Assembly (NCBI GenBank): GCA_036337765.1
Contig: JAYZDP010000161.1
Location: 3,021 to 67,020, forward strand
DNA from: Acidobacteriota bacterium
GTDB lineage: Bacteria > Acidobacteriota > Thermoanaerobaculia > Multivoradales > Multivoraceae
Length of the DNA stretch: 64,000 bases
Reading direction: 5' to 3'
In this document: in pieces, positions 9,765 through 64,000 of the stretch
How the letters are laid out: every line of letters begins with the position of its first letter
Position numbering within the stretch: position 1 is the first letter of the stretch
The notes under the pieces: generated by a model
Seen by the model: only the letters and a program-made list of their open reading frames with translations
Told to the model about the DNA's origin: nothing
Databases searched by the model: none
Translations under genes and position numbers: made by a program

Positions 9765-9868
9765 CGTCACCTCCGGATTTTTGTCTGGTCGCAAGGACCT
9801 CGGCCGCCAAAAAGTCTAACACGGTGCGGGGTTAGGAGAGCACCGGTGCCGCGCTATGCTATGCGGTC

Positions 9869-23402: not shown

Positions 23403-24740
23403 GTGACGATAGACGGCCGACTGACGCGGCGCGAGGCGCTGGCTGCCGGAACTGCGGTGGTTGGCGTGCTCGCTGGTGGTCGTGCGCGGGCGCAGACTCG
23501 CTCGCGCGTCGCCCTGGTGGGGACGGGCGTTCGCGGCACTTCGCTGTGGGGCCGCAATCTGGTCGAGAACTACGGCGACGCCGTCGAGATCGTCGGTCTC
23601 TGCGACACCAACCCTGGTCGGCTCCAGTACGGGTCGAGCTACATCGGTGCGGGCTGCCCAACCTACGGCAACTTCGACCAGATGTTGGCCGAGGCACGCC
23701 CCGACAAAGTGATCGTCACCACCGTCGATGCGACTCACCACGAGCAGATAGTCGCCGCTCTCGAAGCAGGATCGGAAGCGATCACCGAAAAGCCACTGAC
23801 GACGGACGCGGCGAAGTGCCAGGCGATTCTCGACGCCATCGATCGTACCGGCGGCCGGGTCACCGTGACCCACAACTACCGCTACTCGCCCCATCGCAGG
23901 CGGATCAAGGAGCTGCTGATGGAAAGGCGGATCGGGAGACTGACCTCGATCGACTTTCACTGGTATCTCGACATTCACCACGGTGCCGCCTACTTCCGCC
24001 GCTGGCATGGGAAGGAGCGTTATTCGGGGGGGCTCTACGTTCACAAGGCGAGTCACCACTTCGACCTGCTCAACTGGTGGATCGAGTCGGACCCGGAAGT
24101 GGTGTACGGCCAGGCGGGCCTCGAGCACTACGGTGCCAACGGTCCGTACCGCAGCGACAAGTGCCGTGGCTGCCCCCACGCCGAGCGTTGTGATTTTCAC
24201 TGGGACATCACCTCGTCGCAGCGCATGGTGGATCTCTACGTCGCCAACGAGCATCACGACGGCTACATCCGCGATGGCTGTGTGTACTCCGAAGAGATCG
24301 ACATCTTCGACAAGATGGCGGCCCAGATCCGCTACGTGAACGGAGCCCAGGTGACCTACTCGTGCACGAGCTACTCGCCGTACGAGGGGTACCGCATCGC
24401 CTTTAACGGCACCGAGGGCCGGCTCGAAGCCTGGATTCAGGAGCGCCAGCCCTGGCCGCGCGAGAGCTACGACGAGCTGCGAGTCACTGATAATTTCGGG
24501 GAGACGGAGCTGATCCGGATCCCGCACCGTAGCGGCGGACATGGTGGTGGCGACGTGCTCATGCTGGATCACATCTTCCGAGATTCGCAGGGGACGGACC
24601 CGTTCAAGCAGCGCGCCGACGTGCGTCAGGGAGCGATGGCGGTTCTCACCGGGTTTGCGGCGCGGCGTAGTGCCCGATCCGGGCAGCCGGTGCGGATCGC
24701 CGATCTCACGAGTCTGGTACCGAAGGAGCAGTGGGTATGA
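23403..24740 (+). CDS. Gfo/Idh/MocA-family oxidoreductase with a twin-arginine signal
   Basis: LTRREALAAGTAVVGVLAGGRARA TAT-like leader, then the VALVGTGVRG Rossmann motif. Confidence 0.8.
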   Translation: MTIDGRLTRREALAAGTAVVGVLAGGRARAQTRSRVALVGTGVRGTSLWGRNLVENYGDAVEIVGLCDTNPGRLQYGSSYIGAGCPTYGNFDQMLAEARPDKVIVTTVDATHHEQIVAALEAGSEAITEKPLTTDAAKCQAILDAIDRTGGRVTVTHNYRYSPHRRRIKELLMERRIGRLTSIDFHWYLDIHHGAAYFRRWHGKERYSGGLYVHKASHHFDLLNWWIESDPEVVYGQAGLEHYGANGPYRSDKCRGCPHAERCDFHWDITSSQRMVDLYVANEHHDGYIRDGCVYSEEIDIFDKMAAQIRYVNGAQVTYSCTSYSPYEGYRIAFNGTEGRLEAWIQERQPWPRESYDELRVTDNFGETELIRIPHRSGGHGGGDVLMLDHIFRDSQGTDPFKQRADVRQGAMAVLTGFAARRSARSGQPVRIADLTSLVPKEQWV

Positions 24741-49356: not shown

Positions 49357-50151
49357 CTATCTGTACTTGGAAAAGTCGGGAGGGCGTTTCTCGTTGAATG
49401 CCTGGACGCCCTCGTTGGCCTCGTCGGTCTCGAGGAAGAGGTCCAACGAGTCGAAGGCCATCGCACCGATCCCCGCAACCGACTCGCTATCGGCGTTGAA
49501 GGAGTGCTTGAGGACCTTCAGAGCGGTCGGGCTCTTGTCGAGCATCTCGTCCGCCCAGGTGCGGACTTCGGCGCGTAGCTCGGCGATCGGCACGACCGCG
49601 TTAACCAAGCCCCAGCGCTCCATGGTGGCGGCGTCGTAGAGGCGGCACAGGTACCAGACCTCGCGCGCGCGCTTCTCGCCGAGGATGCGCGCCAGGTAGG
49701 CGCTGCCGAACCCCGCGTCGAACGATCCGACGCGCGGTCCGGCCTGGCCGAAGCGGGCATGGTCGGCGGCGATTGTCAGATCGCAGATCACGTGCAGCAC
49801 GTGGCCGCCGCCGACCGCAACCCCGTTGACGGCCGCGATCACCGGCTTCGGGATGTCGCGGATCAGCCGGTGCAGAACTTCGACCTCGAACAGCCCGCTC
49901 TCCGTGGGTCCGTAATCGCCGGTCTCTTGGCGTTGCTTCTGATCGCCGCCGGCGCAGAATGCTTTGTCGCCGCGGCCGGTCAGGGCCACGACCCCGACTG
50001 AGCTATCTGCCCAGGCAGCCTTGAAGGCACGGATCAGCTCGTCGATGGTGCGGCCCCGAAACGAGTTGAAGCGCTCGGGACGGTCGATGGTGATCCAGGC
50101 AAGACCTTTGTCGACCTCGTAGGTGACATCTTCGAGTGCATCGAGGTTCAT
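49357..50151 (-). CDS. Crotonase-superfamily enzyme of the MenB/BadI subfamily
   Basis: Collinear with E. coli MenB by eye (TGRGDKAFCAGGDQKQR..., GGGHVLHVICDLTIAADHARFGQAGPRVGSFDAGFGS..., AFNEKRPPDFSKY). Confidence 0.85.
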   Translation of the reverse strand: MNLDALEDVTYEVDKGLAWITIDRPERFNSFRGRTIDELIRAFKAAWADSSVGVVALTGRGDKAFCAGGDQKQRQETGDYGPTESGLFEVEVLHRLIRDIPKPVIAAVNGVAVGGGHVLHVICDLTIAADHARFGQAGPRVGSFDAGFGSAYLARILGEKRAREVWYLCRLYDAATMERWGLVNAVVPIAELRAEVRTWADEMLDKSPTALKVLKHSFNADSESVAGIGAMAFDSLDLFLETDEANEGVQAFNEKRPPDFSKYR

Positions 50152-50158
50152 TCAGCTC

Positions 50159-50518
50159 CTAGTGTTCGTGGTCGTGGTCGTGGCCGTGAGGGCGGGCGGC
50201 GAGCTGGTGGCTGCGCTGGTCGAGCTCCTGGGCGGTGCAGAGGTCGCGGTCGCGCAGCATCTTCTCGAAGGCTCGTTGCCAGCATTCGTAGTAGCGGTAC
50301 TCCTCTTGGTGGTCGGCCCGACTCTCCCACTCGGCAATGGCCGCGATGAGCTCGGTCTGGAAGTCCTTCCACGCGAATACGCCCTGTTCTTGAAGAGCAA
50401 GCGTGAGCCCGAACAGCCGGCTCTGCCACGGCTCCTCGAAGACGAGCTCACCGTTCGAGCGGGGGGGCGCGGCCGGACCCTCGATCGGAAGGTCGGCTTC
50501 GGCGATGCGCTCGCTCAT
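50159..50518 (-). CDS. Nitrile hydratase accessory (activator) protein
   Basis: 119 aa. LVFEEPWQSRLFGLTLAL is a beta-subunit-like motif. His-rich tail HGHDHDHEH. ATGA overlap with the alpha-subunit stop. Confidence 0.75.
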   Translation of the reverse strand: MSERIAEADLPIEGPAAPPRSNGELVFEEPWQSRLFGLTLALQEQGVFAWKDFQTELIAAIAEWESRADHQEEYRYYECWQRAFEKMLRDRDLCTAQELDQRSHQLAARPHGHDHDHEH

Positions 50519-51111
50519 GCGGGCGCCGAGACTTTTGCGACGCCGATCATCGCGTCGCGGCCGACCATGGCGGCCAGCTCTTCCTCCGACGCTCCCTCGG
50601 TTCCGTTGGGGCGCTCGGGCAGCACCATGTAGCGGATCTCGGCCGACGAGTCCCAGACCTTGATCTCGACCTCGTCGTCGAGAACGAGCCCCATCTCGGT
50701 GAGCACGCGGCGTGGCTCGCGCACTATACGCGATCGGTAGGCCGGTTCCTTGTACCAGGTTGGAGGCAAGCCGAGGACCGCCCAGGGGTAGCAGGAGCAG
50801 AGGGTGCAAACCACCACGTTGTGCACGCCGGGCGCGTTCTCCTTGACCTCGAGCCGCTCCATCTGTGCGCCTTCGAAGCCCATCTCACCGACTGCACCGG
50901 TGCCGTCGGTGAGCAGGCGCCGGCGGTAGTCGGGGTCGGTCCACGCCCGAGCCACGATCTGGGCGCCACGCATGGGGCCGATGTCGCGCTCGTAACGCTC
51001 GACGATCCCGTCGACCACTCCCGGATCGAGGAGGCCCTTCTCGGCGAGGAGAGACTCGAGCGCCTCGGCGCGCTGGGCAGGAGAGTCGGAGTCGTGATCG
51101 TGGTCGCTCAT
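50515..51111 (-). CDS. nthA: Nitrile hydratase alpha subunit, cobalt type
   Basis: Metal site VCTLCSCYPW (Thr is Co-type). ATGA overlap with the beta-subunit stop. Confidence 0.9.
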   Translation of the reverse strand: MSDHDHDSDSPAQRAEALESLLAEKGLLDPGVVDGIVERYERDIGPMRGAQIVARAWTDPDYRRRLLTDGTGAVGEMGFEGAQMERLEVKENAPGVHNVVVCTLCSCYPWAVLGLPPTWYKEPAYRSRIVREPRRVLTEMGLVLDDEVEIKVWDSSAEIRYMVLPERPNGTEGASEEELAAMVGRDAMIGVAKVSAPA

Positions 51112-51767
51112 CGTGGCTCCAGATAGCTTTCGAAGAGGTCGAGGTGCACGGTGGTCTCGGGCTCGGCCTCGTCCCCCCACAGCTCCCGGCCGCCGAACCC
51201 GACACAGTAGACATGCTGGGGGCTCTCTCCCAGCCCGTGTGCGTTGGTGTCGGGAAAGACGTAGGACTCGTATACCTCGACGACTGTGCCCTCTTTGTCG
51301 CGCGCGTAGCGCGGTAGTCGGGTGTGTCCGGTCGGATGGATCGGGAACTCGAGCGTCACGACCGCATCTCCCACGGCGAAACGGGGGTCGCGTGCGACCT
51401 CACGTTTGGCTCCCCGCGGCCCGTCGGCGTCCGCGCGGGGCCGAAGCGGCGCAGGGCCTGGAATCGCCTCGCCCGCTTCGATGGCGGTGAGGCGCTCGTT
51501 GATCTCCTCGCGGGCCAGGAGCCCGGTTTCGACGAACAGCGACTCGGCTGCGTGGAGCCAGCGTCCGTAGTAGCCGACGCTGAGATAGACCTCAGGCGGC
51601 AGCCGCTCGATCGCGTGGCGGAAGCGGTCAATGCTCGAGTCAGGGATCGGCACGCCGGTGAGAGCGAAGACCTTGGCCTCCCAGTCGGCGTGGAAGACCG
51701 GCTCGTTCACTTCGACCTCGACCCTGCCGAAGCCGTGCATGCCACCTAGATCGTGGATTCCGTCCAT
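51108..51767 (-). CDS. nthB: Nitrile hydratase beta subunit
   Basis: MDGIHDLGGMHGFGRVEVEVNEPVFHADWE... is the canonical NHase beta N-terminus. Confidence 0.9.
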   Translation of the reverse strand: MDGIHDLGGMHGFGRVEVEVNEPVFHADWEAKVFALTGVPIPDSSIDRFRHAIERLPPEVYLSVGYYGRWLHAAESLFVETGLLAREEINERLTAIEAGEAIPGPAPLRPRADADGPRGAKREVARDPRFAVGDAVVTLEFPIHPTGHTRLPRYARDKEGTVVEVYESYVFPDTNAHGLGESPQHVYCVGFGGRELWGDEAEPETTVHLDLFESYLEPR

Positions 51768-51891
51768 GGGTCATCGGCGATGATACTGCAGGGTTTGGCC
51801 CCGAGCCGCTGCTAAGCTGGCGCGCCGCAGACGGCGCGTTGGAGTGCTGGCGCACTCTCCGAGCACGGCAACGACGCGGTGGAGATCCATT

Positions 51892-53355
51892 ATGCGAAGT
51901 TCGAAGCCTAGAAGAGCTGCAATCCTGGTTCCGGTGGCCGTCGCCTGCTGTCTCGGCACGGCCTTTGCCAACGACGGCAAACAGGCGACCGTGGCCCGGG
52001 TCGAGGCGGGGGCCGACACCTACTGGCAGACCGCGCTCGACATCTGGGGCTGGGCCGAGCCCGGCTACCAGGAGACGCGTTCCTCCGAGCGGCTTCAGAG
52101 TCTGCTGCGGGCCGGCGGCTTCGAGGTGGTGGCGGGGGTGGCTGGGATTCCGACCGCGTTCATGGCCACCTATGGCAGCGGCCAGCCGGTGATCGGCATC
52201 CTGGCAGAGTTCGACGCGCTACCCGGCCTGAGCCAGAAACCGGTACCGCACCAGGAGGCCCGCGACGAGACGACCTGGGGCCACGCCTGCGGCCATCACC
52301 TGTTCGGTACCGCCTCGACCGCAGCGGCACTGGCGATCGCGGAAGACATCCGTGATGGTCGGCTGCGGGGCACGGTACGGCTGTACGGCACTCCCGCCGA
52401 GGAGGGGGGCGGGGCCAAGGTCTTCATGGTGCGCGAGAACCTGTTTTCCGACGTCGACGCGGTGCTGCACTGGCACCCGGGCGACGCCAACAGCGCCGGC
52501 GATCCGACGTCGCAGGCTCGCGTTGCGGCGAAGTTCCGCTTCCACGGCCGCAACGCCCATGCGGCTTCCGCGCCCGAAGCGGGCCGTTCGGCGCTGGACG
52601 CCGTCAACGTGACCAACTACGCGGCGGAGATGATGCGAGAGCACACCCCCGACCTGAGCCGCATCCACTACGTCATCACCGCAGGCGGCGATGCGCCGAA
52701 CGTGGTGCCTGGCTTTGCCGAGGTTTACTACTACGTGCGCCATCCGGATGCGGCCGTGGCGCGCTCGCTCTACGAGCGACTGCTCAAGTGCGCGCAGGCC
52801 GGAGCACTGGCGACCGAGACCGAGCTCGAGGTCGACTATCTCGGGGGTGTCTACAACGTGCTGCCGAACGATGCACTGTCGCAGGTGACTTTGCGTAACC
52901 TTCGCGAGCTCAGCGAGTTGACCTACACGCCCGAGGAGAGCGCCTACGCTGAGACCTTGCAGGCGACCCTGACCACGCCTCAGCCGCTCGCCAACGTGGG
53001 CAAGGTTTTCGACCGCACCGGCGCCGTCAGCAAGGGCTCGACCGACGTGGGCGACGTGTCGTGGGTGGTGCCGACCACGGGTCTGCGCGCTGCCACCTGG
53101 GTGCCTGGCACCCCGGCCCACTCCTGGCAGGCTTCCGGTACGGGTGCAACGACCATCGCGCGCAAGGGCATGATGCTGGCAGCCAAGACCCTGGCGGCCA
53201 CCGCGTGGGATCTGTTCACCAGTCCGGAAGTGCTGGCGCGGGCGCGCCGTGAGCTCGAGGAGCGCACCGGCCGCAACCCCTACGCGGCAATGCTCGAGGA
53301 CGGCCAGCCGCCGCCTTTGACGTACCGCAACCCTCCTTCAGCCGGTTCCCACTAG
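51892..53355 (+). CDS. M20-family amidohydrolase (AbgB/M20D-like) with signal peptide
   Basis: MRSSKPRRAAILVPVAVACCLGTAFA. ...GILAEFDALPGL...HACGHHL... Confidence 0.8.
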   Translation: MRSSKPRRAAILVPVAVACCLGTAFANDGKQATVARVEAGADTYWQTALDIWGWAEPGYQETRSSERLQSLLRAGGFEVVAGVAGIPTAFMATYGSGQPVIGILAEFDALPGLSQKPVPHQEARDETTWGHACGHHLFGTASTAAALAIAEDIRDGRLRGTVRLYGTPAEEGGGAKVFMVRENLFSDVDAVLHWHPGDANSAGDPTSQARVAAKFRFHGRNAHAASAPEAGRSALDAVNVTNYAAEMMREHTPDLSRIHYVITAGGDAPNVVPGFAEVYYYVRHPDAAVARSLYERLLKCAQAGALATETELEVDYLGGVYNVLPNDALSQVTLRNLRELSELTYTPEESAYAETLQATLTTPQPLANVGKVFDRTGAVSKGSTDVGDVSWVVPTTGLRAATWVPGTPAHSWQASGTGATTIARKGMMLAAKTLAATAWDLFTSPEVLARARRELEERTGRNPYAAMLEDGQPPPLTYRNPPSAGSH

Positions 53356-54677
53356 GGAGGTGACTCGGCGGCAGCTGGATGGCGAAGGTTTCGCAATCCA
53401 CGCACTGCGAGCCCGGTCAGGAGAGCTATCGGTGCGAGCCAGGGCAGAAGCGCCGCCATCTCCGGAACCAGCCCCGGCACCAGGTTGTACTCGCCGAGCG
53501 CTGTGGCCCGCTCGGCCATCCAGTGCCAGCTGGTATGGGCGACGATCGCCGACAGCAGGATGGTGCCCAACCGCTCCGGTACGACCTTGCGCAGCAGCCA
53601 GTCGAGGGCCGGCACCAGCAGGATGAGCACGAAGATCTGGCCCAGCTCGACGCCGATGTTGAACGACACTAGCGACGTCAGCAGGTGCGATCCGGCGAAC
53701 TGCAGGGTCTCGCGCAACACGAATGAGAAGCCGAAGCCGTGTACGAGGCCGAAGGCGAAGGTGATCCACCAGCGCCGCTGCACTCGCGCACCCACGATGT
53801 TCTCGAGTGCCATGTAGACGATCGAGACGGCGATCAGAAGCTCCACGAGCGGCGGGAACCACAGCGAATCGGGCACGAAGCCGTAGGCCGAGGCGATCAG
53901 CGTGATCGAGTGGGCGACTGTGAACGAGGTGACGACGACGACCAGTTCGCGCAGCTTGCGCAGCGGGATCACCAGGCAGGCGAGAAAGAGCAGGTGATCG
54001 AGACCGTCGAGGATGTGGAAGAAGCCCTCCTCGACGAAGCGCAGCGCAGCCTGGTGCCAACGCGGGTCGAGGCGCACCAGTCCCGGCTCACCGCGGTACT
54101 GAAAGGCGCGCTCGGCACGGCCGGGCGGGAGATAGCGCAGTACCGTGACGACGCGCATGCCGAGCCGGGCGTGACGCGGCCGGATCGAGAAACTGGCAGT
54201 CTCCGACTGGATGGGCGCTTCGAAGAGCATGTCGAGCATCGCCTGCTGCCAGACGATGCGGGTGCTTGCGGACAAGGGCGATGCGGCGATGTGCGCCACG
54301 GCGTTGTCGAAGGTCGTGAAGGAGCGGTCGGACGGCAGCGATACGCGTACCCCTCGCAACTCCAAGGGCGGCAGCTGGCGACCCTCTTCGTAGAGTTCGA
54401 CGTTCTCACCCACCCAGAGGTCGGCGGCATCGGTCAGCACACGCCCGGCGCGCGCCGCCTCGAGGTCGAGGTATCCCGGCCCCTCGACCGGGAAGCGCAT
54501 GTCCTGTAGAGCCTCCATCGGCACGCGAACAACGAACTGCAGCGTGCGGCCGTCCGGCTTGACGAACGTCTGCAGCGTGACGTCCGTGGGGATGTCGTGG
54601 GCACCCGCGGCGGCGGCGCCGAGCACCGCCAGGGCGGCAACCACGATCCTGGACAGGTTCACCCTCGGCATCAACAC
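53352..54677 (-). CDS. HupE/UreJ-family membrane protein with an N-terminal periplasmic domain
   Basis: The C-terminal half reads GFFHILDGLDHLLFLACLV...FTVAHSITL...FGLVHGFGFS...FNIGVELGQ. Confidence 0.7.
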   Translation of the reverse strand: MLMPRVNLSRIVVAALAVLGAAAAGAHDIPTDVTLQTFVKPDGRTLQFVVRVPMEALQDMRFPVEGPGYLDLEAARAGRVLTDAADLWVGENVELYEEGRQLPPLELRGVRVSLPSDRSFTTFDNAVAHIAASPLSASTRIVWQQAMLDMLFEAPIQSETASFSIRPRHARLGMRVVTVLRYLPPGRAERAFQYRGEPGLVRLDPRWHQAALRFVEEGFFHILDGLDHLLFLACLVIPLRKLRELVVVVTSFTVAHSITLIASAYGFVPDSLWFPPLVELLIAVSIVYMALENIVGARVQRRWWITFAFGLVHGFGFSFVLRETLQFAGSHLLTSLVSFNIGVELGQIFVLILLVPALDWLLRKVVPERLGTILLSAIVAHTSWHWMAERATALGEYNLVPGLVPEMAALLPWLAPIALLTGLAVRGLRNLRHPAAAESPP

Positions 54678-54741
54678 GGACCGACGATTCTATGGCGTGC
54701 CGGCGACGGCACTCGGGAGGGCGGCCCGCTAGGCTCGGCCG

Positions 54742-55116
54742 ATGCCGACGTCTGTCAGTCCGCTCGAACGACCGCGCTCGATCATCTCGGCCTGGCCCGA
54801 GACCGACGAACGCATCTCGCACGGGTCACCGACGTGGTGGGGAGGGCGCAAGACTTTCGCCACCTTCGCTCTCGACCATCACGGAGATGGCCGCGAGGCG
54901 GTGTGGTGCAAGGCCACCCACGATGTCCAGGAGGCCCTCGTCGAGGCAGCACCCCACATCTTCTTCGTGCCGCTCTACGTCGGACCGAGCGGGTGGATCG
55001 GCATCGAGCTAGACGGCGACGTCGACTGGGGGGTAGTGGAGGAACTGCTCGAAGAGGGCTACCGGATGGTGGCGCCGAAACGGGCCATTCGACAGCTCGA
55101 GCTCGACCGGCCGTGA
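54742..55116 (+). CDS. MmcQ/YjbR-family protein
   Basis: 124 aa. ...WPETDERISHGSPTWWGGRKTFATF...GWIGIELDG... is typical of the family. Confidence 0.65.
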   Translation: MPTSVSPLERPRSIISAWPETDERISHGSPTWWGGRKTFATFALDHHGDGREAVWCKATHDVQEALVEAAPHIFFVPLYVGPSGWIGIELDGDVDWGVVEELLEEGYRMVAPKRAIRQLELDRP

Positions 55117-55212
55117 AGTGGCAATGACCATGGTTTCCAGGCCTGCGCAGCTCCTGCCAGCTCGGCTATACTCGCGCTCTCGTAGACAATCGATTCGTTG
55201 GGGGATGAGCGG

Positions 55213-56448
55213 ATGAAGCACACACACGTCTGTGTCGGTCTGGTAGCAGTGTTGGCGCTTGGCGCATGTGGTGGTAGTGGCAACGGTGGCTCGGTCGAGG
55301 CCCCGGAAGACGCGACGGTCATGGCGCCGCGCTTCGAAGTGGATCCATTCTGGCCTAAGCCTCTGCCCGATCACATGCTGATCGGTTCCGCCATCGGAGT
55401 GGCGGTCGATTCGCGCGATCATGTCTGGATCGTGCATCGCAACACCGCCGATCAGTTCGGTTCGTTCAACGAGATCGGCCTGGCGCAGGATCCGCCATTG
55501 AGCGATTGCTGCCAGCCGGCGCCGCCGGTGCTCGAGTTCGATCCCGACGGAAACCTGGTCAACGGTTGGGGCGGCCCCTCCCCGACCGGTGAGTACGAGT
55601 GGCCGGCGTCGAACCACGGCATCGTGGTCGATCACATGGACAATGTCTGGATCGGCGGCAACGGCGGTCCCGACGCGCAGGTGCTGAAGTTCACGCGCGA
55701 CGGCAAGTTTCTCATGCAGGTCGGCAAGTCCGGTGCCCGCGACACCGGTGAGGTGGGGGAGAACGACCGCCCGATCTACAAGCGCGACAGCCACTCCAAA
55801 GACAGCTTCGGCCGCGTCGCCAAGATCTCGTTCGACGCCGAGGCCAACGAGATGTACCTTGCGGACGGCTACTTCAACCGCCGCGTCGCCGTGATCGACG
55901 CCGACAGCGGTGAGCTGAAGCGCTACTGGGGCGCGTACGGTGAGGCGCCCGACGACGAGCTCGATCTCGGTCGTTATTCGCCCGACGATCCGCCGGCCAA
56001 GCAGTTCCGCGGTCCGGTTCACTGCGCCGACCTTTCGAAGGACGGCAAGCTCTACGTCTGCGACCGTGGTGCCGATCGGCTGCAGGTGTTCGACAAGGAC
56101 GGTACCTTCCTCGATGAGACGATCATTGCGCCGCACACCCTGTCGCAGGGCTCGACCTGGGACGTGGCCTTCTCGGAGGATCCGGCGCAGAAGTACCTCT
56201 ACCTGGCGGATGGGCAGAACATGAAAGTGCGCGTGATCGAGCGCGAGTCGATGGATGTGCTCTACACCTTCGGCGACGGCGGCCGCCAGCCCGGGCTCTT
56301 CTTCGCCGTGCACTCGATCGCGACAGACTCTAAGGGCAACATCTACACCACCGAGACCTACCAGGGACGGCGGTTGCAGAAATTCGTCAACAAGGGGGTG
56401 CAGTCGGTTCCTGCTGGGAACTGGGGCGCTCCGTGGCCTTCGGGTTAG
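55213..56448 (+). CDS. NHL-repeat six-bladed propeller lipoprotein, PAL (peptidyl-alpha-hydroxyglycine alpha-amidating lyase)-like
   Basis: Lipobox LALGACGG. GSAIGVAVDSRDHVWIVHR, NHGIVVDHMDNVWIG..AQVLKF, LADGYFNRRVAVIDADSGELKRYWG; these parallel the rat PAL domain by eye. Confidence 0.7.
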   Translation: MKHTHVCVGLVAVLALGACGGSGNGGSVEAPEDATVMAPRFEVDPFWPKPLPDHMLIGSAIGVAVDSRDHVWIVHRNTADQFGSFNEIGLAQDPPLSDCCQPAPPVLEFDPDGNLVNGWGGPSPTGEYEWPASNHGIVVDHMDNVWIGGNGGPDAQVLKFTRDGKFLMQVGKSGARDTGEVGENDRPIYKRDSHSKDSFGRVAKISFDAEANEMYLADGYFNRRVAVIDADSGELKRYWGAYGEAPDDELDLGRYSPDDPPAKQFRGPVHCADLSKDGKLYVCDRGADRLQVFDKDGTFLDETIIAPHTLSQGSTWDVAFSEDPAQKYLYLADGQNMKVRVIERESMDVLYTFGDGGRQPGLFFAVHSIATDSKGNIYTTETYQGRRLQKFVNKGVQSVPAGNWGAPWPSG

Positions 56449-56482
56449 CGCGATTAGTGAGGATCGCCGACGCATAGAACTG

Positions 56483-56503
56483 GTCCGCGGGTTCCCCGCG
56501 GAC
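56483..56503. terminator. GC-rich hairpin (9-bp stem, 3-nt loop) in a convergent intergenic region
   Basis: GTCCGCGGG-TTC-CCCGCGGAC, 35 nt after the 55213-56448 stop. No clear U tract. Confidence 0.3.
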
Positions 56504-56700
56504 GCGCGGGATCCCGTCGTGCTCGCGCAGACTCTACGCGCGCCGGGAGCCCTCCCGCGCTGCTCCCCGCGGCGGGCTGTGGTTGCGCTCGGGTGAGGGG
56601 GCGCCCGGCCCCGGAAGCGGATCGTGTCCTTGCAGGGAAGGGACCGGCTGTGACGGGTTTTACGGCCCGGACGTCGGCAGGGGGCTGAGTCGGGGTGGTC

Positions 56701-57111
56701 TTACGGCTTGACGGCGTGGAAGGCGATGGGTTTGAGGGCCGTGGTCTTTGGGGCGAGCTCGAGGTCCCCTGGGGGGATCTCGTTGGCGGCGAGGATGTAG
56801 GCGAGGACGTCGGCCTTTTCTTGGTTGGTCATGCTGCGGGGGGCGGCTTCGGGCATGGAGACGCGGAGACGCTCGTAGAGGTCGCCTACTGTGAGCTCGT
56901 TCCAGGCCCACATGAAGTCACTGCCGGCCAGGGGCGAGCCCATCTCGCCGCCTTCGAGTTCGGGTCCGTGACACTCGGTGCAGTTGGCTTCGTACAGCGG
57001 CTCGCCGCGCTGCGCCTGTTCCTCGGTGTAGATCCCGTCCCACACGGACTCGGGAGCCTGGCTGGCGATGCCGAGGGCGGCGCGTGCACCCCCCGCCGCG
57101 AGGCTCGTGAT
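56701..57111 (-). CDS. Monohaem c-type cytochrome domain (start codon unresolved)
   Basis: WDGIYTEEQAQRGEPLYEANCTECHG...VSMPEAAP (CXXCH plus Met). There is coding-like GC3 upstream to an ATC at 57111-57109, preceded by AAAGGAGG. The nearest canonical start is only GTG 57045. Confidence 0.55.
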   Translation of the reverse strand: MTSLAAGGARAALGIASQAPESVWDGIYTEEQAQRGEPLYEANCTECHGPELEGGEMGSPLAGSDFMWAWNELTVGDLYERLRVSMPEAAPRSMTNQEKADVLAYILAANEIPPGDLELAPKTTALKPIAFHAVKP

Positions 57112-58136
57112 CCTGCGCCTCCTTTCTTGACGTACATCACCAGCTGACGCGGGCCGACCTCGGCGCCGTAGACGTTGCCCGAGGCGTCCGCCGCGACACC
57201 CTCTGCGGCGCTGGTGCCGGCGTTGTCGGGGTCGGGCTCGGGGTCGGGGATAAAGCCGGTGACGAAGCCGTCCTTGGCGGAGGCGATGCGGATGCCGCGC
57301 TTGAAGCCGCCGTTGCGCCGTGTCGACGACTCGGAGTCGGCGACGTAGAGGGTGTCGTTGGCGTCGATGAAGACGCCGCTCGGTCGGCCGAACTGGTACC
57401 AGGTATGGAGGTGGTTGCCGTTCTGGTCGAAGATCTGCAGGCGCTTGTTCGAGCGGTCGCCGACGAACAGACGCCCCTGCGAGTCGAGGGCCAGGGCGTG
57501 CGGGTCACGGAACTGGCCGTCTTCGCTGCCGGTGCCGCCCCAATCCTTGATGAAGGTACCGTCGGCGGCGAGCTTGACGATGCGGTTGTTGCCGCCGGCG
57601 CCGTGACCATCGGCAACGAAGATCGAGCCGTCGGGTGCCACCAGGACGTCGCTCGGGCCGTTGAAGATCGTCTCGCCCAGACCACCGATACCGGCCACGC
57701 CGAGGCTCATCAGCAGGGCGCCGGTTTCGGAGAACTTGTGGATCTGATGACCCCTGTCACCCTCGCCTCGGGCGTCGGTCACCCAGACGTTCGAGTCCTT
57801 GTCGACGTGGATGCCGTGTGGCCATACGAGGATTCCAGCTCCGAAGCTGCGCACTAGCTTGCCCGCCGGGTTGTAGAGCAGGACGGTATCGAGATCTTCC
57901 TTGCCGGCGCAGCTGTTCGCGCCGCAGCGCTCGGCGACCCATATGTTGCCGCTGCCGTCCTGGGCGGGGTAGACGGCACTGGTCGATCCCCAGGCCCGGC
58001 CCGGCGGATCTTCGGCCCACGCCTCGGCCACCTGGTAGGGGTTGGGGGCGTGGTTTTGTGCCGCCGAGGGCACCGCGCCGCTCATGAGGGCGACGACCGT
58101 GAGAGTGATCGAGGCGGCTCGTAGCTCCATCGACAT
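56886..58136 (-). CDS. NHL-repeat propeller, PAL-like, secreted (3' end unresolved; the last ~75 codons overlap the cytochrome c frame)
   Basis: Signal MSMELRAASITLTVVALMSGAVPSAAQ. PHGIHVDKDSNVWVTDA..HQIHKF, FVADGHGAGGNNRIVKL, DPHALALDSQGRLFVGDRSNKRLQIFD. After ...LVMYVKKGG the sequence becomes low complexity. Confidence 0.65.
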   Translation of the reverse strand: MSMELRAASITLTVVALMSGAVPSAAQNHAPNPYQVAEAWAEDPPGRAWGSTSAVYPAQDGSGNIWVAERCGANSCAGKEDLDTVLLYNPAGKLVRSFGAGILVWPHGIHVDKDSNVWVTDARGEGDRGHQIHKFSETGALLMSLGVAGIGGLGETIFNGPSDVLVAPDGSIFVADGHGAGGNNRIVKLAADGTFIKDWGGTGSEDGQFRDPHALALDSQGRLFVGDRSNKRLQIFDQNGNHLHTWYQFGRPSGVFIDANDTLYVADSESSTRRNGGFKRGIRIASAKDGFVTGFIPDPEPDPDNAGTSAAEGVAADASGNVYGAEVGPRQLVMYVKKGGAGSRASRRGVHAPPSASPARLPSPCGTGSTPRNRRSAASRCTKPTAPSVTDPNSKAARWARPWPAVTSCGPGTSSQ

Positions 58137-58714
58137 GGCAGACCTCGCTTCTCGAAGAGATCCGAAAAAGAGAACTGCCACTATAGCTCGGCCCACCGCC
58201 CATGAGGACCGACGCCTCACTCCCTGTCGAGGCTCGGCGGGGAGTGAGGCGATGGACTGTCTAGTTCTTCAGGTGCGCCGTCAGGGGGCGAAGAAGATCT
58301 CGACGCTCAGGCGACAGCCGGCGACCGGATCGCACTGCCCCGGCGGGCCGGTGAAGATGTCGGAGATTTGCTGGCGGACCATGCCTGGTGTGGCGGGTCC
58401 GTAATCGAGGATGTGGAGGAGAACGGTACCGAGTGGCGCGCGAGCAGTCGGAGCGGATCCCTTTCCGTAGTGGGCAGCCGGAGCTGCACCGCTGCCAGGC
58501 GCTGATGCTCGTCCAGCGGGGGCGACCCGCGGATCGCCCCCTCGCTACGGGCGAGCTGAGCGATGCACGTGCCGGCTACGAGAGGCTCGGAATGTCTCGC
58601 TACGGCGGACTGCCCATCGGTTCAGCCGGTTGACGTAGAATCGAACGGTCGGTTCCACGATCGTCGGGCGATCTCGCCCGGTCGAGTTGTGGGCGGCGCA
58701 GGCAGGGAGTGGAT

Positions 58715-60064
58715 ATGCAGACAAAGACTGGGCGGATCTGTTTCTTGGTATTGCTCGGCCTGGCGGTCGTGAGCTCGAACCCTGCCGCAGCGGCGGGGTC
58801 CGAAGATGCCGTAGCCTCGAGCCCCACGTTTGCTCGCGACGTACTGCCGATCTTCCAACGTTCGTGCCAGAACTGTCACCGCCCCGACGCGGGTGCGCCA
58901 ATGTCTCTGCTGACGTACGAGGAAAGCCGTCCCTGGGCGCGCTCGATCCAGAAAAAGGTCGTCGACCGCTCGATGCCCCCATGGCACCTCGATCCCACTG
59001 TCGGCATCCGCGACTACGTAGGTGACCCGTCGTTGAACGACGCGGAGATTCGCACGATTTCCGCGTGGGTCGAAGCTGGCGCGCCTCGCGGCAACCCGGG
59101 CGATGCGCCGCCGCCGGTCGAGTTCTCGCCGCTCGATGCGTGGACCTTCGGCGAACCGGATCTGGTCGTAGACAACCTCCCGGTCGAGATACCGGCCTCC
59201 TGCGAGGATCAGTATCCGAGCCTGACAGTCGACAGCGGGCTGACCGAGGACCGGTGGATCAAGTGGATCCAGTACATGCCCGGCGATCGTCGGGTCGTGC
59301 ACCACTCGATGCAGTACGCCGTTCAGGACGATCCCGGGCTGATCGACGATGAGCTCACGCGTGTAGCGTTGGGCTCAGGACAGGGGGCCATGCTGGTCGA
59401 GTACGCGGTCGGCAATCAGGGCGACTTCTATCCCGACGGCACAGGACGACTCTTGAAGGCGGGCGCCAAGATCCGCTTCTCCGGTCACTACCACTGCATC
59501 GGCGAGGCCGCGACCGACGTCTCGTCGATCGGGATCAAGTTCTACCCCAAGGGCGAGGAGCCGCACCGCCGTGTGATCTCGTTCATGCTCACCACTGGCG
59601 TACCGGACTCGGAGCGGCTCAACGAACTCTCCATCCCACCGAACACGGTCGCGCGGCACGAGCGCTACTTTCGACTCGAGAAGCCGGCACAGATCATCAC
59701 CTTCCAGCCGCACATGCACTATCTGGGCTCGGCGATGCGACTCGAGGTGATCCACCTCGACGGCCGGATCGAGACCCTGACCGACGTGCCGAAGTACGAC
59801 TTCAACTTTCAGATCTCGTACAACTACGCCGAGCCGCCGGTTTTCCCGGCTGGGTCGTTCCTGCACATCACGTCGTGGCATGACAACACGGCCGACAACC
59901 GCTACAACCCGGATCCCTCGTCTTGGATTGGCTGGGGCAGCCGCACCGTCGACGAGATGGGCAACGGCTGGGTCGAGCTCGCCTATATGAGCGACGAGGA
60001 GTACGAGGCGGCGCTCGCGAAGAACAACGGCCACGGGGCGGCCGCGACCGGCGGCGGTCGTTAG
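58715..60064 (+). CDS. PHM/DBH-like type II copper monooxygenase domain with an N-terminal CXXCH module, secreted
   Basis: Signal peptide; FARDVLPIFQRSCQNCHR...MPPW; then VVHHS, GHYHC, QPHMHYLG, DEMGNGW with PHM-like spacing. AGGGAG sits 5 nt before ATG 58715. Confidence 0.7.
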   Translation: MQTKTGRICFLVLLGLAVVSSNPAAAAGSEDAVASSPTFARDVLPIFQRSCQNCHRPDAGAPMSLLTYEESRPWARSIQKKVVDRSMPPWHLDPTVGIRDYVGDPSLNDAEIRTISAWVEAGAPRGNPGDAPPPVEFSPLDAWTFGEPDLVVDNLPVEIPASCEDQYPSLTVDSGLTEDRWIKWIQYMPGDRRVVHHSMQYAVQDDPGLIDDELTRVALGSGQGAMLVEYAVGNQGDFYPDGTGRLLKAGAKIRFSGHYHCIGEAATDVSSIGIKFYPKGEEPHRRVISFMLTTGVPDSERLNELSIPPNTVARHERYFRLEKPAQIITFQPHMHYLGSAMRLEVIHLDGRIETLTDVPKYDFNFQISYNYAEPPVFPAGSFLHITSWHDNTADNRYNPDPSSWIGWGSRTVDEMGNGWVELAYMSDEEYEAALAKNNGHGAAATGGGR

Positions 60065-60092
60065 GCGACGGGCCTTACGGGGGCGGTGGACG

Positions 60093-60869
60093 ATGCGTCG
60101 GGCGGTGAGTGTGGCTTCGGCGGCGATCCTGATCGCCGGCGCTCTCGCCCACCAAGCGGCAGCGCAGGCCTACGGGCAGCCGGTCTATCCGGGCTATCAG
60201 GGCTTCCTCGACAATCCCGATGGCTCGGTGACGATGGTCTTCCAGTACTTCAGTCACGGTCGCGACCCGGTCATTCTCCCGGCCGGCGAGCGCAACCGCT
60301 TCTCAGGGCATGCCGATCGCAATCAGCCGACGGTTTTCGAGCCCGGCAACCACGAGGACGTCTGTGTGATCGTCGTCGAGTCGCGTCAGGAGGCGCACCA
60401 GCTGCGCTGGTTCATCAGCTTTCCCGACAACGAGTGGTCCACCAGTGTCGATCCGCTCAACGCCGAGTACATGCTGACCGAGCGTGCCGCGAAAGAAGCG
60501 CAGCGCGATCTCGATGTCGGAAGTGCTCCGCGTGGGGTCTGCATCGACAAGCCGCCGACGGTGCGGGCCAACCGACTTCGCCGCTTCGCCGAACGCTCCA
60601 GCGGCACGATCGAGAATCTCGCTGCCCACGTCGGCGAGTCGGTCAGACTGAACGGTCAGGCGCGCGACGAGGGCCTTCCACGGGGTAGCACGGTGGAGGT
60701 CGAGTGGAGCCTGGTCACGGGCCCCGCGGCTGCGGACTTCGCGGATTGTGGATCGGCTACAACGACTGTGCGTTTCGCGTCGGCGGGCACCTACGAGCTC
60801 GAGCTCACTGCCACGGACGGCACCGCCTCTTCTTCAGACCGACTGCGCTTCGAGGTGAGCGCCGAATAG
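60093..60869 (+). CDS. Secreted hypothetical protein with a C-terminal Ig/PKD-like domain
   Basis: Signal MRRAVSVASAAILIAGALAHQAAAQA. The C-terminus VRLNGQARDEG...VEWSLVTGP...YELELTATDG is PKD-like. Confidence 0.45.
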   Translation: MRRAVSVASAAILIAGALAHQAAAQAYGQPVYPGYQGFLDNPDGSVTMVFQYFSHGRDPVILPAGERNRFSGHADRNQPTVFEPGNHEDVCVIVVESRQEAHQLRWFISFPDNEWSTSVDPLNAEYMLTERAAKEAQRDLDVGSAPRGVCIDKPPTVRANRLRRFAERSSGTIENLAAHVGESVRLNGQARDEGLPRGSTVEVEWSLVTGPAAADFADCGSATTTVRFASAGTYELELTATDGTASSSDRLRFEVSAE

Positions 60870-60898
60870 GCGCGTCGAGAGCCCGGCGCGGATCGACC

Positions 60899-62086
60899 CT
60901 AACGGAGCTGGTTCTCGTACCACTTGACGTTAGCGGTGGAGCCGCCCGAGGCCACGAGGTCCAGGTCGCCGTCGCCATCCATATCGGCAGCCTCGCAGCG
61001 TTGCGCGGCGATGCCTCCGTCGTCGATCGTGTGCCTTTCCCAACGGGCACCTTCGGCATCGGTGGCGTCGTAGGCGTACAGGCTGGTGCCCTCGCCGCGG
61101 AAACCGGCCACGATCTCGTCAGAGCCGTCAGCATCGAGATCGGCGACGGCGAGGGCATGGGAGAAAACGAGGGAATCGTCGAGGACGCTTCGCTCCCAGT
61201 CCGTCCCCGATGCGGTCGAGCGATAGACGACTACCTGGTTACCGTGCCACGGCTCGGTAGTGGCGAAGAATCGTCGACCGCCAGCGAGATGGCCGAGGGC
61301 GACTTCGCTCGACCCACGGCGTGGCGCGGGGTCGGACTGGTGTCCATCAGCCAACGCCGTTCGCGTCCAGATCAGACCCTCGGTGGTGGAGCGAGCATCG
61401 AGCAGGTGGACACCCTCGTAGCTAGCGGTCAGAACTTCGTGGCGGCCGTCGCCGTCGAAGTCGACGACCTCGATGCCGTGGGTGACCGGCAGAGAATTGT
61501 CGATGGCGTGGCGTGGCCAAAGTGAGTCGAGCTCGGCTGGCACATCGTAGAAGGCCAGCTTCGCGCCGGCCTGGTCGAAGAGCGGTTCCTCGGCTCCCGG
61601 GCCGAGGATTGGCGAGACCACCAGCTCGGGGGTGCCGTCGCCGTCGAGGTCTCCCCAGTACAGCCTGTGAGCAGTCGGATCGGCGCCGATGCGGTGCGTC
61701 TTCCAGGGCTTGTAGAGGTCTTGGCCACGCCGCAGCAGTGTCAGGGTGCCACCGGCCCGCGAGTCGGCGAGTCCGAAGTCCGAGGCCACGGCGATCTCGA
61801 CCCGACCGTCGCCGTCCAGATCTCGGGCGGCGAGAAAAATGTTGCCCTTGGTCTCGCCGGTCAGGGGATGCCGCGTCCAAGTCGGGTTCTGGAACCAGGC
61901 GAGCTCGCGGCCCTGCGCGATCACGTCGTTGCGGCCGTCGCCGTCGACGTCGACGGCACGAACACAGTACGCGCCCGGGAAGTCGGCGGTGATCGTGTGT
62001 TCGGCAAATCCGGGAAACGGACCTTGTGCCAAGGAGGTCGCGCAGACTACGAGCGCGAGTCCGCTCGCCAGAAGTGGTCGATGCAT
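60899..62086 (-). CDS. FG-GAP/VCBS-repeat beta-propeller protein, secreted
   Basis: Start at MHRPLLASGLALVV. Repeated DxDGDG calcium-type motifs (VDVDGDGRND, DLDGDGRVE, DLDGDGTPE, DFDGDGRHE, DLDADGSDE, DMDGDGDLD). Confidence 0.75.
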   Translation of the reverse strand: MHRPLLASGLALVVCATSLAQGPFPGFAEHTITADFPGAYCVRAVDVDGDGRNDVIAQGRELAWFQNPTWTRHPLTGETKGNIFLAARDLDGDGRVEIAVASDFGLADSRAGGTLTLLRRGQDLYKPWKTHRIGADPTAHRLYWGDLDGDGTPELVVSPILGPGAEEPLFDQAGAKLAFYDVPAELDSLWPRHAIDNSLPVTHGIEVVDFDGDGRHEVLTASYEGVHLLDARSTTEGLIWTRTALADGHQSDPAPRRGSSEVALGHLAGGRRFFATTEPWHGNQVVVYRSTASGTDWERSVLDDSLVFSHALAVADLDADGSDEIVAGFRGEGTSLYAYDATDAEGARWERHTIDDGGIAAQRCEAADMDGDGDLDLVASGGSTANVKWYENQLR

Positions 62087-62152
62087 GGCCGGTGACCTTA
62101 GCAGGAGGGCGGCGCTACACTGTCGGCTGCACCCAGCGGAGGAATTAGGTAG

Positions 62153-62986
62153 ATGAAACAAGCGTTGTTCTCGGGGCTCGTCGCAGCATGCATGGTCTTT
62201 CCATTGGTTGCGCAGGTCGAAGTCACGACCGACATCGCCTACCTCCCGGCGGCCAACTATGCCGACGACAAGGACAAGCTCGACGTTTACCGGCCCGATG
62301 GGGCGACTGACGCGCCGGTCTTCATCTTCGTTCACGGTGGCGGCCTGATGCGGGGCGACAAGGAAGGCCAGGCGCACATCGGTCAGTACTTTGCCCGCCA
62401 CGGCTTCGTCACCGTGTGCATCAACACCCGTCTGTCACCTGCCGTCACCCATCCTGCGCAGGCCCGGGATGCGGCCGCGGCCGTCGCCTGGGTGGAGGAG
62501 AACATCGCAGACCACGGTGGTGACCCTGCCCGGATCGCCCTCGGTGGTCACTCCGCCGGCGCCTACCTCGCGGCCCTTGTGGCACTCGACGACCGTTACC
62601 TGAAGGCCGCGGGAACGAGTCCTGCGGCGATCCGGGCGCTGGTGCCCGTGAGTGGCTTCTACTGGGTCGAGCGGCTAGCGCCCGAGCGCGACAAGTCGGT
62701 TTGGGGGAACGACGAGAAGACTTGGCGCGACGCGTCGCCGTCGCGCTACGCCTCGGCCATGGCGCCGCCGACGCTCTTGATCTGGGCCGATGGCGACACA
62801 GACGCCCGACGCAAGGAGAGCCACGACCTGGCGTCGACGCTGCTGTCTTTTGGGGCTGAGCGCGTCGATGCGTCGCAGATCGCGGATCGCAACCACGGCA
62901 CGGTATGGAGCCTGATCGGCTCCGAGGGCGATCCCGCCGCGCCGCGCATTGCCCGCTTCCTCGAGGAGACGCTCGGAGGCCCCTGA
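62153..62986 (+). CDS. Alpha/beta hydrolase (esterase/lipase, HGGG type)
   Basis: Signal-like N-terminus; FVHGGGLMRGD oxyanion motif; GGHSAGA nucleophile elbow. Confidence 0.8.
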   Translation: MKQALFSGLVAACMVFPLVAQVEVTTDIAYLPAANYADDKDKLDVYRPDGATDAPVFIFVHGGGLMRGDKEGQAHIGQYFARHGFVTVCINTRLSPAVTHPAQARDAAAAVAWVEENIADHGGDPARIALGGHSAGAYLAALVALDDRYLKAAGTSPAAIRALVPVSGFYWVERLAPERDKSVWGNDEKTWRDASPSRYASAMAPPTLLIWADGDTDARRKESHDLASTLLSFGAERVDASQIADRNHGTVWSLIGSEGDPAAPRIARFLEETLGGP

Positions 62987-62996
62987 CCCGCCCCCT

Positions 62997-63605
62997 TCAG
63001 CGGATCGAGGGGTGGAGGTAGCCGGCGGGGAGCACCTGCTCAGGATCGACCCGTATCGACAGGTAGCGAATCGAACTCGTGATTTCCTGGAAGCCGTGGA
63101 AGACGCCGGCAGGGATGACGACGATATCGCCCGCTGCGATGGTGCGGCTCTCACCGGTGGAGGTGCTCGCGCTCATGCTCGGTCCCACCAGTTCGGTGAC
63201 CGCGGATGAGTCCTCGGGCCACTCTCGCCCGGCCTGCACCTGTCCACCCGTCATCAGGATGCCGCTTCCTTCCAGCACATAGTAGATTTCGGTGACGTCG
63301 TGATGGACGATGCCGCGCACCGGCCCGCCGGGCTCGGTCTTCATCGCGCCGCGCTGGAGGGTGCCCACGGCGACATTGGTCTCGCGACCGATGTCGACGA
63401 CCTTCGCCTGGAGGTCGACGCCGTCGCCCAGAGCTTCATAGACCTTCGCGATCTCGGTGCTCGTGACGTCGGTGGCGCTGCGCGAATCACCGTCGGATCC
63501 CTGAGCTCCCGCAACCGCGGCCACGCTCGTCCCGAGCCCGAGCCAGATCAGGAATTGGCCCGCGTAATGGTGTCGTGTGGTCGATCGGAGTCGTTGTCTC
63601 GGCAT
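62997..63605 (-). CDS. Cupin-domain protein, secreted
   Basis: Start at MPRQRL with a signal-like region. HHDVTEIYYVLEGSG...GDIVVIPAGVFHGF cupin motifs. Confidence 0.65.
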   Translation of the reverse strand: MPRQRLRSTTRHHYAGQFLIWLGLGTSVAAVAGAQGSDGDSRSATDVTSTEIAKVYEALGDGVDLQAKVVDIGRETNVAVGTLQRGAMKTEPGGPVRGIVHHDVTEIYYVLEGSGILMTGGQVQAGREWPEDSSAVTELVGPSMSASTSTGESRTIAAGDIVVIPAGVFHGFQEITSSIRYLSIRVDPEQVLPAGYLHPSIR

Positions 63606-63713
63606 GCTGGCCTCCTTGCCGGTGTCTGGGTCGGTTGCGAGACCACATGGGATCTCCGCCGGGCGCGACGTGAGACACTCTGTGGTCACCGTAAAAAGGA
63701 GGGTTTGGTGAGG

Positions 63714-64000
63714 ATGAGGGACACCAGCACCGGTCGTCTTCTGCTCGGCGGCCTCGTTGTCGCTACTCTGGCCGCTGGTTCGGCCTCCGCACAGGAGCAT
63801 CAGTGGCGACACTGGGGAGGCGACGCCGCCAGCAGTCGTTACGCTCCCTACGATCAGATCGACGCCTCGAACTTCGAAGAGTTGGGGATCGCTTGGATCT
63901 GGAAAGGCGACAACTTCGGCCCGTCCACCGACTTCATCCTGCGCTCGACGCCGATCTACGTCGACGGCAAGCTCTTCACCGTCGCCGGACAGCGGCGCAC
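63714..64000 (+). CDS. PQQ-dependent dehydrogenase, 5' part (runs off the window)
   Basis: AAAAAGGAGGG upstream. Signal peptide, then WRHWGGDAASSRYAPYDQIDASNFEELGIAWIW, parallel to the N-terminus of 24731-26674. Confidence 0.7.
   Translation, partial: MRDTSTGRLLLGGLVVATLAAGSASAQEHQWRHWGGDAASSRYAPYDQIDASNFEELGIAWIWKGDNFGPSTDFILRSTPIYVDGKLFTVAGQRR

Follow-up and report, generated by a model that had tools for sequence, protein, structure and literature searches.

A candidate haem-wired copper monooxygenase family of the PHM/DBH type in Acidobacteriota, and its PAL-like neighbours

The window analysed here is a 64,000-nucleotide stretch of an Acidobacteriota genome (assembly GCA_036337765.1, contig JAYZDP010000161.1, positions 3,021 to 67,020), with a guanine-plus-cytosine (GC) content of about 66%, and the region studied lies at 55-61 kb of it. 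Two adjoining genes in this region encode a 451-residue and a 258-residue protein, here called PHMc and D, labels coined in this analysis. On the best reading of the data, PHMc represents an uncharacterised, haem-wired family of copper monooxygenases of the type of peptidylglycine alpha-hydroxylating monooxygenase (PHM) and dopamine beta-monooxygenase (DBH), which is labelled "cytochrome c" in public databases. Six genes were read at the locus, namely HupE_UreJ_2, NHL-A, a cytochrome c gene, NHL-B, PHMc and D, and the closest matches of the proteins of the region were found in metagenome-assembled genomes of Thermoanaerobaculia and Holophagae. The original prediction had taken the locus for a split form of animal PAM, with its PHM and PAL halves exported as separate proteins. 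Our results showed that PHMc and D, on the one hand, and the NHL genes, on the other, are merely juxtaposed in the window and that the juxtaposition is limited to close relatives. We consider it likely that they are two independently conserved periplasmic modules that adjoin only in this Thermoanaerobaculia lineage.

Fold, copper ligands and haem domain of PHMc

PHMc is encoded on the plus strand at 58709-60064. From its open reading frame (ORF), predicted fold and conservation, the protein was divided into a signal peptide, a haem-c domain (about residues 38-125; 58820-59083), a CuH-type domain (59156-59608) and a CuM-type domain (59621-59989), the last two making up a copper centre of two-domain PHM/DBH fold. 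The AlphaFold model of PHMc has a predicted local distance difference test (pLDDT) score of 83.8 and a predicted template modelling (pTM) score of 0.80. Comparison of this model with the PDB by Foldseek showed that the top 31 matches were all human DBH or rat PHM. Their E-values ranged from 3.9e-12 to 5e-9, and the 290-331 aligned columns covered both PHM domains; the first unrelated match came at E 2.6e-6 with a template modelling (TM) score of 0.21.

The copper ligands were mapped by profile alignment with the rat PHM core, for which a sequence 100% identical to residues 45-356 of PDB 4e4z was used. Global hhalign alignment of the catalytic region of PHMc with PHM did not succeed, and local alignments alone worked. 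One alignment (E 0.024) paired FQPHMHYLG and VDEMGNGW of PHMc with YRVHTHHLG and SDEMCNLY of PHM, which equates H335, H337 and M417 with the CuM ligands H242, H244 and M314; the Pfam Cu2_monoox_C domain falls on residues 327-421. A local alignment (E 0.033) paired VVHHS with TVHHM and GHYH with VHYG, which equates H198, H199 and H260 with the CuH ligands H107, H108 and H172. In an alignment of 42 PHMc sequences (49-82% identity), C53, C56, H57, H198, H199, H260, H335 and H337 were invariant, and H262 and M417 were kept in at least 90% of the sequences. Though weak individually, the two profile alignments are consistent with both the fold match and the residue invariance. The PHM/DBH copper-ligand pattern that the original prediction had read at 58715-60064 is upheld by these results, both in the fold and in the ligands.

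The CQNCH motif (58865-58879; C53, C56 and H57) lies in the haem-c domain, ahead of the copper domains as had been predicted, and this domain forms three helices in the model. M89 (in MPPWH) and H93 are invariant in the 42 sequences and M65 is kept in at least 90% of them, M89 or M65 being the candidate sixth haem ligand. The features of class I c-type cytochromes are present in PHMc, namely CXXCH, the invariant M89 and the signal peptide. Pfam scans of the individual family sequences gave a cytochrome c match in 42 of 42, to Cytochrome_CBB3 and Haem_bd, and a Cu2_monoox_C match in 38 of 42 (best E 1.4e-5); the window protein itself gave a weak cytochrome c match below the Pfam threshold.

The family is large, with 3,748 matches, in Acidobacteriota, among the 8,000 candidates scored, and at least 552 loci in species-representative genomes. 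Its public names are "cytochrome c" or "hypothetical". Phmmer and profile searches of PDB sequences with PHMc did not find PHM and gave weak cytochrome c matches only, and NCBIfam holds no model that matches PHMc or the HupE protein. The gene call stored for the source contig, P0001 (387 residues), begins at Met65 of PHMc and so leaves out the signal peptide and CQNCH, which the homologues all conserve; its start site was probably annotated wrongly.

PHM, DBH and tyramine beta-monooxygenase (TBH), the copper type II ascorbate-dependent monooxygenases, are textbook eukaryotic enzymes in which the long-range electron transfer from CuH to CuM and the need for ascorbate remain under debate. PHMc resembles them (1PHM, 1OPM, 4ZEL) in its two jelly-roll domains, in a CuH site of three histidines with a contiguous HH pair, in a CuM site of HxH plus Met, and in the spacing of the ligands (61/75/80 residues, versus 64/70/70 in PHM). 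It differs from them in being bacterial and periplasmic, in having a constant Ig/PKD partner gene, and in the haem-c domain fused to its N-terminus, which would take the place of ascorbate or DOMON. The fused CXXCH domain suggests that the reductant of PHMc is other than ascorbate.

A further difference concerns the substrate site. In PHM, Y318, together with N316, serves as an anchor of the glycine carboxylate. In PHMc, Y318 is replaced by W421 and R240 by Q333, both of which are kept in at least 90% of the family, while N419 is variable. In PHM the guanidinium group of R240 binds the substrate carboxylate (PMC12164859). Because of these two exchanges, PHMc would, judged by its sequence, be a copper centre of the PHM type that does not bind peptidylglycine in the way PHM does.

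The partner gene D and the neighbourhoods of the two modules

D is encoded on the plus strand at 60093-60869, 28 nucleotides 3′ of PHMc on the same strand, and its 258-residue product is exported. Its N-domain (60165-60587) is Ig-like, and a PKD domain follows at about 60615-60860. The AlphaFold model (pLDDT 85.9) showed tandem Ig-like sandwiches, the C-terminal one being a K319L-type PKD domain, and its fold matches in the PDB were generic tandem Ig domains. The N-domain belongs to no Pfam family. In public databases the protein is named "hypothetical protein" throughout, save for one "PKD domain-containing protein" in the match list. Among 1.84 billion representatives the N-domain had 414 matches, most of them single-copy and in proteins of 160-330 residues. 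Three to six tandem copies of this domain were also seen in surface proteins of 650-3,558 residues (the P0361, P0363, P0367, P0387 and P0392 matches), which also bear Ig, DUF11, LamG or fn3 domains; in P0392 the architecture of D goes together with a cytochrome c′ match that is weak (E 5.8e-5, under the Pfam cut-off).

The neighbourhood of PHMc was determined in 83 loci, 80 from species-representative genomes (±10 kb) and three from contig look-ups (±8 kb), in which six-frame ORFs were searched with the window proteins and neighbours were counted by targeted phmmer. The 80 species-representative loci are those of the best 80 matches and are all from Acidobacteriota. A D homologue adjoined PHMc in 80 of the 83 loci, and two of the three exceptions lay at contig edges. 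The position of D relative to PHMc varied, with D upstream in some loci and divergent in others; in locus L042 it is cut down to the N-domain, and its stop codon overlaps the PHMc start as ATGA.

The NHL genes were seldom found in these loci. Within 10 kb of PHMc, NHL-A orthologues occurred in 5 of the 83 and NHL-B orthologues in 2, L001 having both, so that an orthologue of either was present in 6 of 83 loci; any NHL-type match was seen in 9. The reverse sample comprised 80 loci with NHL-B, drawn from Gemmatimonadota, Acidobacteriota, Gammaproteobacteria and other groups, and with neighbours scored within 6 kb it contained neither PHMc (0/80) nor D (0/80). The NHL-B loci did contain an NHL-A orthologue (30 loci), HupE_UreJ_2 (37), both of these (28), a pyrroloquinoline quinone (PQQ) dehydrogenase (10) and a cytochrome c (10). 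In the window, the PHMc and NHL genes are spread over both strands and belong to separate transcription units. The co-occurrence counts of 6/83 and 0/80 argue for modules lying side by side and not for one pathway. The conserved synteny of PHM-like and PAL-like families, which had been set beforehand as a test of the split PAM module, is absent, and that part of the original prediction is not borne out: what PHMc keeps beside it is D.

Neighbours of PHMc other than D were all clade-specific. In a Multivorans/Holophagales clade (L042:5826-11272 and about 20 other loci), genes for a peptidyl-prolyl-isomerase-like protein, a HupE_UreJ_2 paralogue, an AbgT-family transporter, a D N-domain protein of 165 residues and PHMc form an apparent operon. 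A permease of the HupE type is thus found with the PHM-like module as well as with the PAL-like one. In Vicinamibacterales (L007:11646-12701 and about 22 other loci), PHMc is followed immediately, in the same orientation, by the gene of a DmpA/S58-type aminopeptidase, with a radical-SAM/B12 gene past D and an SLC13 transporter gene close by. In the window, the gene immediately downstream of D encodes an FG-GAP propeller resembling aldos-2-ulose dehydratase (60899-62401, minus strand); no such propeller was found beside PHMc in the other 83 loci.

The PAL-like propellers and the free-standing cytochrome c

NHL-A, encoded on the plus strand at 55198-56448, is a lipoprotein-type NHL propeller. 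Its family was aligned by hhalign with rat PAL, the peptidyl-alpha-hydroxyglycine alpha-amidating lyase domain of PAM (a sequence 100% identical to residues 498-820 of PDB 3fvz), at a probability of 96.9% and E 1.9e-10 over 279 columns. The result showed that R81, H140, Y225, H275, R290 and H372 correspond to PAL R533, H585, Y654, H690, R706 and H786, the alignment at H275 being shifted by one residue. H140, H275 and H372 thus stand at the Zn-ligand positions of PAL, and Y225, R81 and R290 at those of Tyr654, Arg533 and Arg706. None of the six varies among 32 homologues (62-78% identity). The family comprises at least 8,000 matches and bears the public name "hypothetical".

NHL-B, also exported, is encoded on the minus strand by an ORF at 56886-58220 with a likely start at 58136, and consists of a core (57126-58136) and a read-through tail (56886-57125). 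It matched rat PAL by phmmer at E 3e-25, and the profile of its family (65 sequences from several phyla) did so with a probability of 99.7% and E 1.9e-25, with 38% identity over 181 columns in blades 2-4. R98, H135, H241 and R256 are invariant in the 65 sequences, in which H206 stands at PAL Tyr654 and E340-G341 at H786-D787. The Zn-ligand positions are therefore occupied by H135, H241 and E340, the third being Glu, and those of Tyr654, Arg533 and Arg706 by H206, R98 and R256. Neither propeller keeps the Ca-site residue D787 of PAL, which is an invariant S373 in NHL-A and an equally invariant G341 in NHL-B. The PAL likeness that had been predicted for the two propellers holds in that both are PAL homologues and NHL-A has the full catalytic set; it does not extend to the site of NHL-B, which is without Tyr654 and the third His. 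Unlike the PAL of PAM, both propellers are without PHM-gene linkage across genomes, and their partner is HupE_UreJ_2. Two further NHL-B architectures were observed: in the Gemmatimonadaceae locus L130 (5962-9522) a 1,187-residue ORF joins NHL-B, a linker domain of about 200 residues and a PQQ dehydrogenase, and in L092:543-2528 a tandem pair of NHL-B domains lies within one ORF.

The HupE_UreJ_2 membrane protein (53352-54677, minus strand) matches its Pfam family at E 2.9e-43, as the HupE/UreJ nickel/cobalt permeases would. It differs from those permeases in an extra N-terminal periplasmic domain of about 200 residues, and in being paired with PAL-like propellers, or in one clade with PHMc, instead of hydrogenase or urease genes. 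In its translation the predicted signal-peptide cleavage leaves a mature N-terminal His. The gene adjoins NHL-A in the window, in L001 and in L084-L090, and was divergent from it in every locus inspected, including NHL-A look-ups in three further lineages. Literature searches gave no description of HupE_UreJ_2.

The cytochrome c gene, or remnant, lies on the minus strand at 56701-57111 and contains one CXXCH. Its Pfam domain, Cytochrome_CBB3, was found at 56701-57045 (E 1.6e-10), in keeping with the original prediction; a canonical start was not found, there being no ATG, GTG or TTG start in this frame. The start in the original prediction, at 57111, is an ATC six nucleotides after AGGAGG, and the signal peptide is weak, degenerate and interrupted by Arg. 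DNA alignment showed that the NHL-B stop codon is TGA in L001 and L090 and GGA in the window, so that here NHL-B reads on for a further 79 codons, across the cytochrome c gene in another frame. The GC content at third codon positions is 0.85 in the frame of the cytochrome, 0.72 in that of the tail and 0.87 in the NHL-B core, and on account of the value of 0.85 the cytochrome frame is taken as the coding frame of the overlap.

L090 is the nearest relative, with an NHL-A 90% identical to that of the window. On its minus strand NHL-B is followed by a 693-residue PQQ dehydrogenase and then by a 141-residue exported cytochrome c. The window aligns to L090 on both flanks, and about 2.1 kb between them is absent (window 57030-57140 versus L090:9593-11783); this segment takes in the PQQ dehydrogenase, the stop codon of NHL-B and the signal peptide of the cytochrome c, and the junction contains a G6 run and AGGAGG-N6-ATC. 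It may reflect a real deletion, loss of a stop codon or an assembly error. A further reading, in which an indel within the G6 run brings the cytochrome c into frame with NHL-B as its C-terminal part, would require a sequencing error. The window cytochrome is orthologous to the dedicated cytochrome c that goes with the PQQ dehydrogenase in L090 and other NHL-B loci; unlike that pair, the window is without a dehydrogenase at this site and its cytochrome is without a canonical start. These comparisons point to a damaged gene, at best non-canonically started, whose product would belong with a PQQ dehydrogenase now lost from this site. As an electron donor for PHMc, the role once predicted for it, it is a poor and not an obvious candidate; PHMc carries its own haem. 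Three more PQQ-dehydrogenase homologues were found in the window (24671-26671, 9836-11608 and 63210-63998; best score 468 bits against the L090 enzyme), so the organism still has PQQ dehydrogenases away from the NHL-B site.

The window also contains a Co-type nitrile hydratase cluster (49357-53355), with an alpha subunit at 50515-51180 on the minus strand that bears the motif VCTLCSC, and with beta and accessory ORFs at 50159-50809 and 51108-51767. At its flanks are genes for an enoyl-CoA hydratase and an M20 peptidase, and in L090 genes in this order come before HupE and NHL-A. An Rfam scan of 53000-62500 gave no match, and promoter and terminator scans at the locus were at background level.

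Proposed mechanism, alternatives and meaning

What the results above show are folds, conserved ligands, signals for export, operon structure and neighbourhood counts; the metal content, electron path, O2 chemistry, role of D and substrates that follow are inferred. The first module would be an exported two-gene unit of PHMc and D. Haem c would be bound covalently at C53-x-x-C56-H57, and copper at a CuH-like site (H198, H199 and H260) and a CuM-like site (H335, H337 and M417). Most likely, the haem draws single electrons from a respiratory pool in the periplasm and hands them on to CuH, replacing ascorbate, and CuM would then activate O2 and hydroxylate a C-H bond of the substrate. The role of D is probably that of a stoichiometric subunit, either accessory or substrate-presenting. 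The second module would comprise HupE_UreJ_2 and the two PAL-family propellers, NHL-A with an apparently intact PAL-type site of three His, Tyr and two Arg, and NHL-B with His/His/Glu plus His. In relatives this module is sometimes accompanied by a PQQ dehydrogenase and a cytochrome c, and the window lineage appears to have lost the dehydrogenase and kept the damaged cytochrome gene.

Wiring of a haem to a copper monooxygenase has an analogue outside the cytoplasm. The cytochrome domain of cellobiose dehydrogenase feeds single electrons to lytic polysaccharide monooxygenases and so replaces a small-molecule reductant. The likeness to PHMc would lie in this wiring; there the haem is of type b, the flavoenzyme is separate and the copper is a mononuclear histidine-brace site, whereas in PHMc the predicted arrangement is a fused haem c and a two-copper centre of the PHM type.

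Taken as a whole, the proposal is that PHMc with D constitutes a large bacterial branch of the PHM/DBH enzymes, periplasmic, wired to the respiratory chain through the fused cytochrome c and acting on a new class of substrate, and that in the window lineage it may have been recruited beside PAL-type lyases into a primitive amidating or N-dealkylating pathway. We give this full proposal an even chance. Literature searches gave no haem-fused bacterial PHM and no bacterial PAL homologues, in accord with the earlier statement that no characterised bacterial system is known to pair the two activities.

Several observations weigh against the assignment of PHMc and D, or against the independence of the two modules. 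The TM-scores between PHMc and DBH or PHM are moderate (0.4-0.6; about 0.55-0.64 by target), both profile alignments with PHM are individually weak, and the predicted copper sites are placed by alignment and conservation. The profile searches that bear on the original prediction turned out mixed: Cu2_monoox_C, which detects most family members, gave the window protein 16 bits, under the 23-bit gathering cut-off, and Cu2_monooxygen, the Pfam N-domain model, gave no match in PHMc. No functional site was recognisable in D, no fusion of PHMc and D was present among 150 listed of the 414 D N-domain matches, and more distant PHMc members could have partners other than D. Finally, both modules are adjacent in four related contigs (the window, L001, L004 and L090), and in the unrelated locus L077 an NHL-A orthologue lies directly next to D and PHMc. 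On account of these adjacencies a local functional link between the modules is possible.

For the propellers, the alternative is that NHL-B, and perhaps NHL-A, are not amidating lyases but metal-dependent hydrolases or lactonases that act on the products of PQQ dehydrogenases, whose electrons go to cytochrome c. In L090 and 10 of the 80 NHL-B loci, PQQ dehydrogenase and cytochrome c genes lie between the NHL genes or next to them, which accords with this, as do the NHL-B fusion in L130, the invariant His/His/Glu plus His of NHL-B in place of the three His plus Tyr of PAL, and weak Pfam matches to the lactonase and SGL families. However, NHL-B at 38% identity is closer to PAL than to any lactonase found, NHL-A retains the PAL Tyr and both Arg, and no PQQ dehydrogenase lies within 6 kb in 70 of the 80 NHL-B loci, and we regard a lactonase role as rather unlikely.

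A second alternative leaves the fold as it is and denies PHMc the hydroxylase activity, making it a redox protein on a PHM scaffold, such as a haem/copper oxidase, a nitrite or superoxide enzyme, or an electron-transfer or copper-handling protein. It would account for the loss of the PHM substrate-binding residues, for the want of any conserved biosynthetic or catabolic partner besides D, for the plain cytochrome c label in databases and for the HupE-type metal permease paralogue in the same operon in one clade. It sits badly with the conservation of the exact CuH and CuM sets of O2-activating enzymes, the HH pair and Met included, and of the entire two-domain fold. Mutation of any copper ligand of PHM lowers activity to about 5% or less (PMC12164859), which also counts against this alternative, and we hold it to be improbable.

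The split PAM of the original prediction would have PHMc alpha-hydroxylate glycine-extended peptides or N-acylglycines, with haem c donors, and NHL-A, NHL-B or both cleave the resulting carbinolamide into the amide and glyoxylate. The two kinds of enzyme are indeed exported and adjacent in the four related contigs, NHL-A has every PAL catalytic residue and PHMc all the copper ligands, and L077 repeats the NHL-A adjacency; a loose peptide and amide theme is also seen nearby, with the M20 peptidase and nitrile hydratase here and the DmpA-type peptidase or AbgT transporter elsewhere. Against these stand the rarity of NHL orthologues near PHMc and the wide distribution of the NHL module in phyla whose sampled NHL-B loci carry no PHMc nearby, the spread of the genes over both strands and separate transcription units, the loss of both carboxylate anchors from PHMc, the lack of Tyr654 and His786 equivalents in NHL-B, and the damage to a stand-alone cytochrome whose partner in relatives is the PQQ dehydrogenase. 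We hold such a coupling, even one confined to this lineage, to be improbable.

Neighbouring genes in one lineage do not make a pathway, and the proposed bacterial PAM pathway is not what was found. The interest of PHMc for specialists in copper enzymes is real nonetheless. NHL-A, with its predicted intact catalytic site and its HupE-type partner, may be a second enzyme family of note. If the preferred reading of PHMc as a haem-wired PHM/DBH-type monooxygenase is true, its built-in haem input would let bioinorganic chemists trigger single-electron delivery and follow it spectroscopically, thousands of database entries that read only "cytochrome c" would be corrected, and the known biology of the PHM/DBH family would extend to soil and marine Acidobacteriota.

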